This document shows positions 9,218 to 62,012 of a stretch of DNA of 64,000 nucleotides, piece by piece; position 1 is the stretch's first letter; every line of letters starts with the position of its first letter. Source of the stretch: Octopus vulgaris (taxonomy: Eukaryota); assembly GCA_951406725.2 (NCBI GenBank), contig OX597818.1:54312001-54376000 (forward strand). Reading direction: 5' to 3'. The translations under genes were made by a program, and so were the position numbers. The notes under the pieces are model-generated. The model made no database searches and was not told the origin of the DNA. It saw only the letters and a list, made by a program, of their open reading frames with translations.

Positions 9218-12200
9218 TTTCAACAATTGAGGGTAAAATTAATTAATTATTAATCAATTTCACCAAGTGTTCAGTATGCAAAGGGACCATTTAAGGCGAA
9301 TTCAAATTATTACATTATATAAAAGGGCTTAGTAAAATAAATTACTTCGCCGCATACTGAACTCATTAGAAATAGCAGCTAAAAAACTTTTTTAAAGCTA
9401 TTTCTAATACTTAAAGAAAATCTCTCTCATATATAGCGTTTGCCTAATTCAACTCACAAAAGTTTGGGGTAAGGACATTAAAAAATCAAATGCTAAGGTT
9501 ATTTGAGTACGTACGTTTCAAGATTAGTCAAAACAACACTTCTATCTTCAGCTCAGAAATTCCTTGGTTTGGATTTGGAAACACTGAAAGTAAGAACATA
9601 CCCTTTCGAAGATTCGCTCGTTACTAACAGTGCCAACAAACCCAAAATAAGCAAGTGAAGAATTCCTGTCCTCCCCTTTCCACCAGCGTGGGTTAAAATC
9701 ATCAAACGCTATGCTTATTTCGGTAAAATCCGAAGCATTAATTAGAGGGAGATTAATTATAATTTCAACAATTGAGGGTAAAATTAATTAATTATTAATC
9801 AATTTCACCAAGTGTTCAGTATGCAAAGGGACCATTTAAGGCGAATTCAAATTATTACATTATATAAAAGGGCTTAGTAAAATAAATTACTTCGCCGCAT
9901 ACTGAACTCATTAGAAATAGCAGCTAAAAAAACTTTTTTAAAGCTATTTCTAATACTTAAAGAAAATCTCTCTCATATATAGCGTTTGCCTAATTCAACT
10001 CACAAAAGTTTGGGGGTAAGGACATTAAAAAATCAAATGCTAAGGTTATTTGAGTACGTACGTTTCAAGATTAGTCAAAACAACACTTCTATCTTCAGCT
10101 CAGAAATTCCTTGGTTTGGATTTGGAAACACTGAAAGTAAGAACATACCCTTTCGAAGATTCGCTCGTTACTAACAGTGCCAACAAACCCAAAATAAGCA
10201 AGTGAAGAATTCCTGTCCTCCCCTTTCCACCAGCGTGGGTTAAAATCATCAAACGCTATGCTTATTTCGGTAAAATCCGAAGCATTAATTAGAGGGAGAT
10301 TAATTATAATTTCAACAATTGAGGGTAAAATTAATTAATTATTAATCAATTTCACCAAGTGTTCAGTATGCAAAGGGACCATTTAAGGCGAATTCAAATT
10401 ATTACATTATATAAAAGGGCTTAGTAAAATAAATTACTTCGCCGCATACTGAACTCATTAGAAATAGCAGCTAAAAAACTTTTTTAAAGCTATTTCTAAT
10501 ACTTAAAGAAAATCTCTCTCATATATAGCGTTTGCCTAATTCAACTCACAAAAGTTTGGGGGTAAGGACATTAAAAAATCAAATGCTAAGGTTATTTGAG
10601 TACGTACGTTTCAAGATTAGTCAAAACAACACTTCTATCTTCAGCTCAGAAATTCCTTGGTTTGGATTTGGAAACACTGAAAGTAAGAACATACCCTTTC
10701 GAAGATTCGCTCGTTACTAACAGTGCCAACAAACCCAAAATAAGCAAGTGAAGAATTTCTGTCCTCCCCTTTCCACCAGCGTGGGTTAAAATCATCAAAC
10801 GCTATGCTTATTTCGGTAAAATCCGAAGCATTAATTAGAGGGAGATTAATTATAATTTCAACAATTGAGGGTAAAATTAATTAATTATTAATCAATTTCA
10901 CCAAGTGTTCAGTATGCAAAGGGACCATTTAAGGCGAATTCAAATTATTACATTATATAAAAGGGCTTAGTAAAATAAATTACTTCGCCGCATACTGAAC
11001 TCATTCTGAGCGAACGCATTCTTACTTTCAGTGTTTCCAAATCCAAACCAAGGAAGAGCTGAAGATAGTGTTGTTTTGACTAATCTTGAAACGTACGTAC
11101 TCAAATAACCTTAGCATTTGATTTTTTAATGTCCTTACCCCCAAACTTTTGTGAGTTGAATTAGGCAAACGCTATATATGAGAGAGATTTTCTTTAAGTA
11201 TTAGAAATAGCTTTAAAAAAGTTTTTTAGCTGCTATTTCTAATGAGTTCAGTATGCGGCGAAGTAATTTATTTTACTAAGCCCTTTTATATAATGTAATA
11301 ATTTGAATTCGCCTTAAATGGTCCCTTTGCATACTGAACACTTGGTGAAATTGATTAATAATTAATTAATTTTACCCTCAATTGTTGAAATTATAATTAA
11401 TCTCCCTCTAATTAATGCTTCGGATTTTACCGAAATAAGCATAGCGTTTGATGATTTTAACCCACGCTGGTGGAAAGGGGAGGACAGAATTCTTCACTTG
11501 CTTATTTTGGGTTTGTTGGCACTGTTAGTAACGAGCGAATCTTCGAAAGGGTATGTTCTTACTTTCAGTGTTTCCAAATCCAAACCAAGGAATTTCTGAG
11601 CTGAAGATAGAAGTGTTGTTTTGACTAATCTTGAAACGTACGTACTCAAATAACCTTAGCATTTGATTTTTTAATGTCCTTACCCCAAACTTTTGTGAGT
11701 TGAATTAGGCAAACGCTATATATGAGAGAGATTTTCTTTAAGTATTAGAAATAGCTTTAAAAAAGTTTTTTAGCTGCTATTTCTAATGAGTTCAGTATGC
11801 GGCGAAGTAATTTATTTTACTAAGCCCTTTTATATAATGTAATAATTTGAATTCGCCTTAAATGGTCCCTTTGCATACTGAACACTTGGTGAAATTGATT
11901 AATAATTAATTAATTTTACCCTCAATTGTTGAAATTATAATTAATCTCCCTCTAATTAATGCTTCGGATTTTACCGAAATAAGCATAGCGTTTGATGATT
12001 TTAACCCACGCTGGTGGAAAGGGGAGGACAGAAATTCTTCACTTGCTTATTTTGGGTTTGTTGGCACTGTTAGTAACGAGCGAATCTTCGAAAGGGTATG
12101 TTCTTACTTTCAGTGTTTCCAAATCCAAACCAAGGAATTTCTGAGCTGAAGATAGAAGTGTTGTTTTGACTAATCTTGAAACGTACGTACTCAAATAACC

Positions 12201-12930
12201 TTAGCATTTGATTTTTTAATGTCCTTACCCCCAAACTTTTGTGAGTTGAATTAGGCAAACGCTATATATGAGAGAGATTTTCTTTAAGTATTAGAAATAG
12301 CTTTAAAAAAGTTTTTTAGCTGCTATTTCTAATGAGTTCAGTATGCGGCGAAGTAATTTATTTTACTAAGCCCTTTTATATAATGTAATAATTTGAATTC
12401 GCCTTAAATGGTCCCTTTGCATACTGAACACTTGGTGAAATTGATTAATAATTAATTAATTTTACCCTCAATTGTTGAAATTATAATTAATCTCCCTCTA
12501 ATTAATGCTTCGGATTTTACCGAAATAAGCATAGCGTTTGATGATTTTAACCCACGCTGGTGGAAAGGGGAGGACAGGAATTCTTCACTTGCTTATTTTG
12601 GGTTTGTTGGCACTGTTAGTAACGAGCGAATCTTCGAAAGGGTATGTTCTTACTTTCAGTGTTTCCAAATCCAAACCAAGGAATTTCTGAGCTGAAGATA
12701 GAAGTGTTGTTTTGACTAATCTTGAAACGTACGTACTCAAATAACCTTAGCATTTGATTTTTTAATGTCCTTACCCCCAAACTTTTGTGAGTTGAATTAG
12801 GCAAACGCTATATATGAGAGAGATTTTCTTTAAGTATTAGAAATAGCTTTAAAAAAGTTTTTTAGCTGCTATTTCTAATGAGTTCAGTATGCGGCGAAGT
12901 AATTTATTTTACTAAGCCCTTTTATATAAT
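9218..12930. repeat. ~546-bp tandem repeat array in two head-to-head arms (retrozyme-like), (TA)n at both ends
   Basis: Unit starts at 9221, 9766, 10313 and 10859. Orientation switches at ~11006, and inverted units run to 12930. Confidence 0.95.
11597..11648 (+). ncRNA. Type I hammerhead ribozyme motif (one per 546-bp unit)
   Basis: tgag-CTGAAGA-[t-aga..agt..act..tct-t]-GAAA-cgtacg-TA-ctca. Copies on + at 11056-11102, 12142-12193 and 12688-12739; on - at 9504-9555, 10051-10102 and 10597-10648. Confidence 0.8.
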
Positions 12931-59739: not shown

Positions 59740-60601
59740 GGTTGAGCGGAATATCTATAAAGCAGCCGAAATGTAGCAGTACAACTTTAAGCCGTGAAAT
59801 ATTGTTGCAAAAATTGAGGAACGGAAAATAGCGATATATTACCTCGGTTTTTCCCTTTGTTCAGCTCAGAAATAGCGGTTAAATTGATCCTGATGTTGCG
59901 GATAACACATGCGATTATTCAAAAAATATTAATTAATATAAGATAAGAATATGTAGGATAAAAGATGTAGTTTGATGAACGTACTCCTGGGTTTAATCAA
60001 TATTTAAATGCTGAGATCAGTTGATAATTAAGCAAATGTCCACATAGAACTTGATACTAAAAAGACAGTCCGCTGAGTGTCAATTTCACTGACGATGGGC
60101 GTGATTCTACAATAGTCACTCAACGCAAGACTACTTCTGCGTCTTATTTATTTTCTATGCTATATATATGATATTATCTGTGTCATATGTTATGCTTCAA
60201 TAATCATGGTTACGTATGAACCAATGAGAGATGACAAGGAAGTTTTCTATGCAATTTCCAAGAAAGAAATAACACAAATATTTTCTGAGAAAACGATATA
60301 AAATCAGTTCTAGATTTTTGTTCAGTCATATAACGAAACTGAACACACACACACACACTCACACACATATTTATCTCTTTATATAGATATGTACATATAT
60401 AACATACACACACATACACACACACACACACACACACACACACTCACACACGCACGCATACTTATCTCTTTATATAGATATGTACATATATAACATACAC
60501 ACACAAGAACACAAGCACAGACACACACACAGGTGCACACACACACACACATACACACAGCCGCACACACACACATACACACATACATACCTCAAGCGTT
60601 G

Positions 60602-62012
60602 CTCAAACGATCTATGTACTTGTGATATTTTTCTGTATTTACCTCCAAACCTTCGTGGGCTGTCTGGAGTAAACATTATCTGAGAGAAATTTTCTTTAAG
60701 TAGTACAAATGCTAAGAAAATTTTTTTTGGCTGCTATTTCTACTAAGTTCAGTATGTGGCAAAGTAATTTATTTTACTAAGCCCTAATTATATAATGTAA
60801 AATTTTGAATTCGCCTTAAATGGTCCTTTTACATACTGAACACTTGGTGAAATTGATTAATTAATTAGTTTTACCCTCAATTGTTGATATTATAATTCAT
60901 TTCTCTCGGTCATACTGCATCGGTTCTCGCGGTTAAAATATAATGTTTGCTAGATAGACCACGTGGGTGGAAGGGGATTGAAGAAATTTACGCCTGCGCA
61001 TTTTGAATTTGTTGACACTGTTAGTTGGAGTGGTTCATCTGAAGTGATAAGTTCGCTGATAGGTAAAGTTCCTTCTTTTTAGTGTTGCCAAATCCAAATT
61101 AAGAAATTTTGAGCTGACGATAGAAATGCTGATTTTATTTGGCTAATCTTGAAACGTTGACGTACTCAAAGGATCTATGTACTTGTGATATTTTTCTGTA
61201 CTTACCTCCAAACCTTCGTGGGCTGTCTGGAGTAAACATTATCTGAGAGAAATTTTCTTTAAGTAGTAGAAATGCTAAGAAAATTTTTTTGGCTGCTATT
61301 TCTACTAAGTTCAGTATGTGGCAAAGTAATTTATTTTACTAAGCCCTAATTATATAATGTAAAATTTTGAATTCGCCTTAAATGATCCTTTTACATACTG
61401 AACACTTGGTGAAATTGATTAATTAATTAGTTTTACCCTCAATTGTTGATATTATAATTCATTTCTCTCGGTCATACTGCCTCGGTTCTCGCGGTTAAAA
61501 TATAATGTTTGCTAGATAGACCACGTGGGTGGAAGGGGATTGAAGAAATTTACGCCTGCGCATTTTGAATTTGTTGACACTGTTAGTTGGAGTGGTTCAT
61601 CTGAAGCGATAAGTTCGCTGATAGGTAAAGTTCCTTCTTTTTAGTGTTGCCAAATCCAAATTAAGAAATTTTGAGCTGACGATAGAAATGCTGATTTTAT
61701 TTGGCTAATCTTGAAACGTTGACGTACTCAAAGGATCTATGTACTTGTGATATTTTTCTGTACTTACCTCCAAACCTTCGTGGGCTGTCTGGAGTAAACA
61801 TTATCTGAGAGAAATTTTCTTTAAGTAGTAGAAATGCTAAGAAAATTTTTTTTGGCTGCTATTTCTACTAAGTTCAGTATGTGGCAAAGTAATTTATTTT
61901 ACTAAGCCCTAATTATATAATGTAAAATTTTGAATTCGCCATAAATGGTCCTTTTACATACTGAACACTTGGTGAAATTGATTAATTAATTAGTTTTACC
62001 CTCAATTGTTGA
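60602..62012 (+). mobile_element. 2.5 tandem copies of a ~562-bp retrozyme-like unit, related to the 546-bp array
   Basis: Unit starts at 60602, 61165 and 61727; ends ccctcaattgttga|(TA)n. Confidence 0.92.
61108..61170 (+). ncRNA. Type I hammerhead, canonical core
   Basis: tttgag-CTGACGA-t-aga...tct-t-GAAA-cg-ttga-cg-TA-ctcaaa; second copy at 61670-61732. Confidence 0.85.

Follow-up and report, generated by a model that had tools for sequence, protein, structure and literature searches.

How do short elements that encode no protein come to be inserted, in tandem and often head to head, into the TA microsatellites of a genome? The question is raised by a 64,000-nt stretch of the Octopus vulgaris genome (OX597818.1, 54,312,001-54,376,000; referred to here as the window), for which a preliminary description had reported six non-coding elements with one type I hammerhead ribozyme motif per unit. 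Using self-BLAST together with reading of the sequence, we located all six (families A, G, B, C, D and E; Table 1), along with a seventh family, I. We propose, with a probability of roughly 70%, that these families are non-autonomous Penelope-like elements of the non-LTR (non-long-terminal-repeat) retrozyme type, twin-primed on one monomer that is probably a circle. As a class, non-LTR retrozymes are known; what is new here is the record that the insertions of these elements have left.

Hammerhead-bearing closed units

The motifs were found with a scan that requires a stem I of at least 4 bp and in which pair 10.1-11.1, with which stem II begins, may be mismatched. This gave 17 matches in the window, against a mean of 0.03 (maximum 1) in 30 block-wise dinucleotide shuffles and none in the reversed sequence; two of the 17 (at 48544 and 15421) look like chance. 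A strict scan demanding a paired stem II base recovered none of the window motifs because their stem II starts with a mismatch. When nine of the motifs are aligned (the row of element J being misaligned in stem II), 90% of the cells are paired and 12 of 13 pairs show two-sided changes, a level reached in none of 500 shuffles; as these motifs were chosen for pairing, the window shuffle is the fairer control. Stem I is wholly different between families, yet it pairs every time. The cores read CUGANGA, CCGAUGA or UUGANAA/UUGAUGA, and the short stem III has a palindromic sequence in A, C, G, H and J, a form that according to the accessible part of Cervera 2014 cuts as a dimer. The core is intact in nearly all of ~309 aligned A-E copies, and core and stems are retained across seven families that are unrelated or 75% identical.

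With a longest stop-free frame of 60-101 amino acids (aa) per unit the units are non-coding; their GC content is 33-46%, and the parsed loci show no LTR structure. The units of families A-E, G and I close on themselves: past the farther of their two 3' end sites (L, below) the sequence goes on with the start of the unit itself, and the period is fixed at every locus (350-357 bp for G at other loci, 481 bp for I as seen at locus L219). A and E are 76% identical, C and G ~75% in part, and the remaining families share little or nothing. Folded as circles, whole units reach z = -3.9 to -9.0 (20 shuffles), the sense strand folding better than the antisense in seven of seven.

A first look at the genome gave 1,127 candidates for A, 1,983 for B, 1,233 for C, 1,109 for D, 1,434 for E, 4,543 for G and 1,750 for I, which, with 40 scored per family, are lower-bound indications and not copy numbers. 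Full-length matches among those scored are 91-100% identical and dispersed over many chromosomes, so that the families, made of closed units without an open reading frame (ORF), deserve the earlier labels retrozyme-like, diverse and recently active. Family A must be very young because many of its copies are 98-100% identical to the window unit. One A array (L187, C1:71595500-71605400) holds ~13 units with no internal differences at scored columns; it is very recent, or possibly assembly-collapsed since it ends at a gap. Contigs of the A unit assembled from four runs not on record as RNA join end to start, a pattern that tandem DNA also gives, and the contigs show no ends.

Metazoan non-LTR retrozymes, as described in the accessible parts of Cervera 2020 (PMC7229834) and Li 2026 (10.64898/2026.07.22.740005), resemble these families in having tandem non-coding units with one type I hammerhead, GC below 50%, target duplications of more than 4 bp, circles predicted to be self-paired, a short palindromic stem III and co-occurring Penelope-like elements; a U-U at the base of stem II is likewise known from the axolotl retrozyme HHR_Amex2 (Cervera 2020). 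They differ in that those parts describe neither a cephalopod case nor (TA)n targeting, inversion or a tail. Some units had been called unusually long, a claim we drop: 481-562 bp exceeds the 150-450 bp range of Cervera 2020 but lies within the 51-972 bp of Li 2026, as far as these sources are accessible.

Some ten further decayed motifs had also been noted, with a mixed outcome: one is family I, another is element J (below), and about six more, minimal or decayed, were seen. Short TA-flanked repeats with minimal hammerhead-like motifs that lack stem III are very common in the fetched loci, and four lie in the window. An eighth family, ~70% related to A and E and alike in its two-end build, is present as a head-to-head element at positions 2500-2790 of locus L038. 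The element first given a unit of ~354 bp is G, whose window copy is interrupted by an insert of 1,636 bp flanked by a 13-bp target duplication; an element at 51047-51940 with a 351-bp internal duplication was ruled out for this role, as it carries no hammerhead motif and has Helitron-like ends.

Insertion ends and target sites

We parsed 144 loci of families A-E, of which 125 remained after 14 overlapping fetches and 5 segmental duplicates were dropped; for family I, 2 of 25 loci were dropped, and arms shorter than 28 bp were left out. At these loci 183 of 201 A-E arm 3' ends fall at one of two fixed sites per family. The short (S) site lies ~176-193 nt after the predicted cut in A-E (~173-193 nt across six families), and the long (L) site lies further by ~44 nt in C, 55 in B, 95-98 in A and E and 115-119 in D. 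Head-to-head copies, which had been noted in the window, make up 76 of the 125 loci. Thirteen of them have a non-canonical end; the other 63 have both ends at a fixed site, and 62 of these pair L with S, one pairs S with S and none pairs L with L (p ~1e-17 against 50:50). The L+S pairing recurs in seven of seven inverted G copies and eight of eight inverted I copies, so that it holds for 77 of 78 classifiable head-to-head copies over A-E, G and I. Either arm can be the longer (28 versus 34).

The claim that the 3' end always lies in (TA)n stands in the window for A, B, C, D, E and I and fails for G, where the plus arm ends at the L site in (TA)n at 46361 and the other arm ends in a different repeat. 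Over the genomic loci, 178 of 201 A-E arm ends touch (TA)n with n of at least 4, compared with 11% of random window positions, and the enrichment proposed as a check varies between families: A (61/63), E (41/42), B (31/37), D (21/27), C (24/32), I (31/33) and G (12/28). Ends outside (TA)n lie mostly in AT-rich DNA. At the D locus of the window the TA tract came first, because a 97% identical duplicate carries the tract without the element. Among eight inverted copies in non-repetitive DNA, six are flanked by exact target duplications of 12-14 bp and a seventh by one with a single mismatch, as against none of four simple, non-inverted copies; four further rows were left uncounted because an arm was broken or at least one side was a microsatellite.

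Tail, inversions, 5' truncation and TA bias, together with the abundance of intact reverse transcriptase (RT) plus GIY-YIG ORFs ending in (TA)n, support the mobilisation by a Penelope-type enzyme that the preliminary description had suggested, and we hold it very probable that this occurs with twin priming. In the lizard element Poseidon two internal RT start sites bound the tail, both target strands are cut and extended, and a dimer is predicted (Frangieh 2024, PMC11167929). The accessible part of Craig 2021 (10.1101/2021.04.23.441226) reports a tail usually at one end only and (TA)n as a favoured target. Penelope-like insertions in these sources and in PMC3846280, as far as their accessible parts go, share with ours 5' truncation, an inverted 5' copy, a one-end tail, microsatellite bias and two RT start sites; here, in addition, the one-end-each rule is counted and tied to the 12-14 bp duplications and a shared haplotype. 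Unlike endonuclease-bearing Penelope-like elements as there described, the present units have no ORF, their tails are ~44-120 bp rather than 30-40, and both arms can be longer than a unit. MRC1 and other Chlamys elements (Craig 2021, same part) differ in that they mostly lack hammerheads, favour (CA)n and have a 3' end that generally resembles an autonomous family.

Head-to-head copies could instead arise by fold-back or self-priming of one nucleic acid, as in the antisense self-priming of Arkhipova 2013, without two primings. That model has been published for Penelope inversions with junction palindromes (PMC3846280, accessible part), and in 47 of 62 inverted copies the lengths would allow one arm to lie within the other. 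The remaining 15, the window A element among them, fit neither containment. Moreover, only 2 of 62 copies have arm starts no more than 20 nt apart, where 5.4 are expected by chance, and the junctions are therefore not hairpins; they overlap by at least one base in 39 of 62, a figure inflated by BLAST extension. Fold-back also does not explain why the second arm ends at the other fixed site or why there are 12-14 bp duplications, and we consider it very improbable. We give virtually no weight to spread at the DNA level by rolling circles, whether Helitron-like or extrachromosomal. The tandem arrays, the AT-rich targets and the many Helitron-like elements in the window would suit it, but the retrozyme elements have neither a TC start nor a hairpin-CTAG end, and an RNA intermediate is indicated by the target duplications, the 5' truncation of variable extent, the RNA folding that differs between strands and the conservation of the ribozyme motifs.

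Autonomous Penelope-like elements in the same genome

A GIY-YIG search of the genome returned 6,136 candidates, and among the 150 of these that were scored many lie in 781-aa open frames. The frames comprise an RT, then a CX2-5CxxC cysteine linker, with a GIY-YIG domain at the C-terminus, which by domain order and linker would make the family Neptune-type; Nematis has the same linker as Neptune (Craig 2021, accessible part). All 12 full-length 781-aa elements have (TA)n at their end, which lies 978-1,204 nt past the stop, with a UUGAUAA-type motif ~100 nt before the S end and two ends ~43 nt apart, and both inverted copies seen are L+S. Two more autonomous families have 784-aa frames. Element J in the window matches the end of one of these and, judged by its sequence, is a 5'-truncated 3' end of that family and not a retrozyme. 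In the accessible part of an octopus repeat annotation from 2026, 31 Penelope-like families are given as recently active, and ribozymes are not mentioned.

An intact Penelope ORF with matching termini had been named as something to look for. Intact ORFs are abundant, while none of the autonomous 3' ends examined (three families, the third seen at one 3' end only, plus fragments of others, from a family list that is incomplete) has termini matching any retrozyme unit. Retrozyme matches at L038, considered as a link to an autonomous element, are separate nested insertions and were ruled out. The link to Penelope proposed here thus consists of insertion scars and not of sequence homology; the origin of retrozymes from Penelope ends is argued in Li 2026, within its accessible part.

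In a further explanation, the units would be truncated ends (pseudo-LTRs) of autonomous Penelope elements that were later amplified locally by unequal crossing-over, a process proposed for the birth of satellites in the accessible part of Li 2026. Such an origin does hold for element J (86% identical to an autonomous 3' end) and for a 3' part of an autonomous Penelope-like element at 54864-55418 (67% identical to L051), and some later local duplication is likely at L202 and L187. However, units of A-E, G and I close on themselves with their fixed period at every locus, tblastn matches to pieces of a Penelope ORF occur in only 3 of the examined loci without an ORF, all outside the elements, and inverted arms share private variants, which unequal crossing-over would not produce. 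For A-E, G and I this explanation is already largely refuted, and overall it is quite improbable.

One unit per insertion

We then asked what the template was, comparing variants within and between loci with columns beside homopolymers left out. Over 38 loci of family A, 150 non-majority calls are fixed in all units of their locus, while 87 columns vary within a locus, 40 of these from two loci in which a second insertion had been counted along with the first. Families E (111 fixed, 71 variable) and D (32 fixed, 43 variable) behave like A. Intra-array variants common to several loci number only three in A, one in E and two in D. Because variants are fixed within loci and intra-array differences are rarely shared, each insertion descends from one unit; and because locus-private variants are fixed over all units and both arms (L179, L195, L201, L206, L207, L208), each jump needs a monomer bottleneck at that step or close to it. 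Units join at the cleavage site without a gap in 324 of 325 cases, and the 5' ends are distributed near-uniformly round the unit.

Granted Penelope-type twin priming, a circular monomer is quite probably the template. A ligated circle explains the single-unit descent, the gap-free junctions and the spread 5' ends, whereas a homogeneous uncut multimer explains only the last two. Penelope-based circle copying of retrozymes has been proposed before (Cervera and de la Pena 2020, PMC7229834, accessible part), and Li 2026 backs the proposal with homology and co-occurrence. The alternative is twin priming on an uncut linear read-through multimer, or on a linear monomer with RT jumps, in which the hammerhead would be a relic or serve another step and no circle would form. 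In its favour, Poseidon inserts in vitro without needing hammerhead cleavage (PMC11167929), source arrays are homogeneous within themselves and would pass this on to their daughters, and near-uniform 5' ends suit an uncut template as well as a circle. Haplotypes fixed over all units and both arms, private variants included, speak against it, as do gap-free junctions unlike those of template jumps, arrays reaching 13 units (L187) and the retention of core and stems in all seven families. We judge it unlikely.

The region between the two end sites matters for spread, since inherited variants are depleted there (13 at 511 sites against 143 at 1,651 elsewhere; Fisher p=9e-5) while private variants show no difference (79 in the region, 275 elsewhere). 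This S-L region is under purifying selection. At the 55 core sites there is a single inherited change, in which G8 and A8 are swapped opposite U3, too few to test.

Weighing the evidence

Several observations weigh against the proposed reading. On the side of the ribozyme, Rfam returns no gathering hits for a hammerhead in the window and, at E<=10, nothing from any hammerhead family over B and C; the window matches listed (150 of 478) are microsatellite-driven miRNA matches. Most motifs have the mismatch at the stem II base, and isolated single motifs mostly do not fold as hammerheads (z = +1.1 to -2.4). Eight of nine Xenopus retrozyme dimers failed to cleave (Li 2026, accessible part), and in vitro the hammerhead mutants of Poseidon were without effect on insertion, with a start site that is alike on both strands (PMC11167929). 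Among the insertions, the loci are top-scoring copies and not a random sample, and the window C copy combines an S end with a 10-bp S-side stub, which is under the 28-bp cut-off. L180, L185 and L202 show patterned internal differences that also suit a linear template and that need later local duplication if the template was a single monomer. The 5' ends fall at the cleavage site in 7 of 204 cases against 3.0 expected (p=0.03, with selection bias) and in 1 of 79 unselected arms. Finally, the seven units have no significant match to the autonomous ends examined.

Considering both sides, we outline how such an insertion may proceed. A tandem array would be transcribed, the hammerhead would cut the transcript to unit length and a host ligase would close the circle, steps expected from the class to which the elements belong. 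A Penelope-type RT-endonuclease, probably a Neptune-type dimer, would bind the structured region ~135-310 nt downstream of the cut and make a staggered cut, leaving 12-14 nt 3' overhangs, in AT-rich DNA and mostly in (TA)n. The two DNA ends would each prime on one RNA at a different fixed AU-rich site, and each complementary DNA (cDNA) would run a variable distance round the unit, often for more than one lap, before the two are joined head to head by microhomology; a single successful priming would leave a simple 5'-truncated array. Self-cleavage, the circle, the RT dimer and the partner are what we infer in this scheme, and in its full form, with one RT dimer on one ribozyme-made circle, a 12-14 nt stagger, both strands primed at dedicated sites and cDNAs rolling round the circle, it remains tentative, at slightly less than even odds.

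Other features of the window

The insert that splits G looks like an ORF1-only derivative of a long interspersed nuclear element (LINE), and no insert of its type is present in the other G loci examined. The 5' end of the window E copy falls at the predicted cleavage site. D lies directly at the 3' end of a frameshifted caspase copy (58842-60227), and its empty site comes from a recent segmental duplication, to which a second region ~170 kb upstream (L213) is also paralogous. The elements with a TC start, a GC hairpin and a CTAG end, several of them in TA tracts, we take to be Helitron-like, and two frames in a local duplication are presumably Mariner-type transposases by motif. One AT-rich repeat (24830-25216) appears to share the inverted two-end build; a hammerhead was not found in it.

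Table 1. Features of the 64,000-nt window (positions within the window; L and S, long and short 3' end sites)
Feature	Position	Strand	Description
Family A, whole element	9218-12928		unit 546 bp, head-to-head, junction 11005/11019
Family A, left arm	9218-11005	-	3.3 units (546 bp each); L-site 3' end running into (TA)n 9197-9216
Family A, left-arm hammerheads	9496-9563, 10043-10110, 10589-10656	-	
Family A, right arm	11019-12928	+	3.5 units; 3' end = S site, into (TA)n 12930-12947
Family A, right-arm hammerheads	H17 at 11099, 11644, 12189, 12735	+	
Family I	31830-32213	+	inserted head-to-head as L+S, with (TA)n at either end; hammerhead at 32024-32099
Element J	32286-32523	+	hammerhead 32426-32477; 86% identity over 244 bp to locus L257
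Element H	43137-43990	-	AT-rich, TA-flanked; decayed hammerhead 43354-43436
Family G	44126-46363	+	~355 bp unit, head-to-head; hammerheads 44175-44227 (-), 46104-46152 (+)
Insert in G	44451-46086	+	262-aa frame, RNA-binding-like domains and CCHC knuckle, ending near poly(A) signal
Family B	46487-47188		365 bp unit, head-to-head L+S insertion, (TA)n at both ends
Family B hammerheads	46708-46765; 46968-47025	-; +	
Family C	47263-47999	+	364 bp dimer; S end into (TA)n 48000; ~10-bp inverted stub on 5' side
Family C hammerheads	47414-47471, 47778-47835	+	U3-A8 core variant
Family D	57833-58838	-	555 bp unit, 1.8 units; L end into (TA)n 57775-57832
Family D hammerheads	58125-58208, 58680-58763	-	
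Family E	60602-62012	+	562 bp unit, 2.5 units; L end into (TA)n 62013
Family E hammerheads	61102-61176, 61664-61738	+	
Empty paralogous site of D	63265-63324		(TA)30 tract without element, in 97% identical segmental duplicate
3' part of autonomous Penelope-like element	54864-55418	-	
TA-flanked repeats with minimal motifs	15830-16030, 26802-26999, 32774-32990, 53624-53822		short; hammerhead-like, without stem III
Caspase gene cluster (Peptidase_C14)	22412-23700, 38654-39979, 58842-60227, 63333-64000	-	single-exon-looking, 77-98% identical
Segmental duplication	56783-59505 / 62216-64000		recent, 97% identical
Helitron-like elements, non-autonomous	16146-16770 (-), 24410-24814, 30824-31340, 48020-48405, 51047-51940 (-)		
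AT-rich, TA-flanked repeats	24830-25216, 37745-38195, 19159-19600, 54622-54766		
Tandem copies of SINE-like repeat piece (short interspersed nuclear element)	14111-14965		4.5 copies of a 184-bp piece of a common repeat, 96% identical
Frames, presumed Mariner-type	3713-4945, 5974-6978		local duplication, 98.7% identical

Implications

Reports of cephalopod retrozymes, or of a counted long/short pairing, were not found in the literature searched, which leaves most subscription journals and Repbase outside, and the supplements of Cervera 2020 and Li 2026 may list cephalopods. Two questions were open: how Penelope-like elements integrate, the later steps of which the in vitro study also left open (Frangieh 2024, PMC11167929), and whether a Penelope RT copies retrozymes from circles. 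To these, seven young ORF-free families contribute counted rules from more than 160 loci, namely the L+S pairing, the 12-14 bp stagger, one haplotype per insertion and selection on the start region. Because small templates and intact candidate enzymes come from one genome, the integration model can be tested at the bench. Thousands of such retrozyme copies are invisible to Rfam. If the model is right, retrozymes without likeness to any autonomous element could be recognised by their shared RNA geometry. Should a dimer indeed act on a circle, the tail, the head-to-head inversions and the tandem arrays would all follow from a single mechanism, and these octopus families would record Penelope integration directly.

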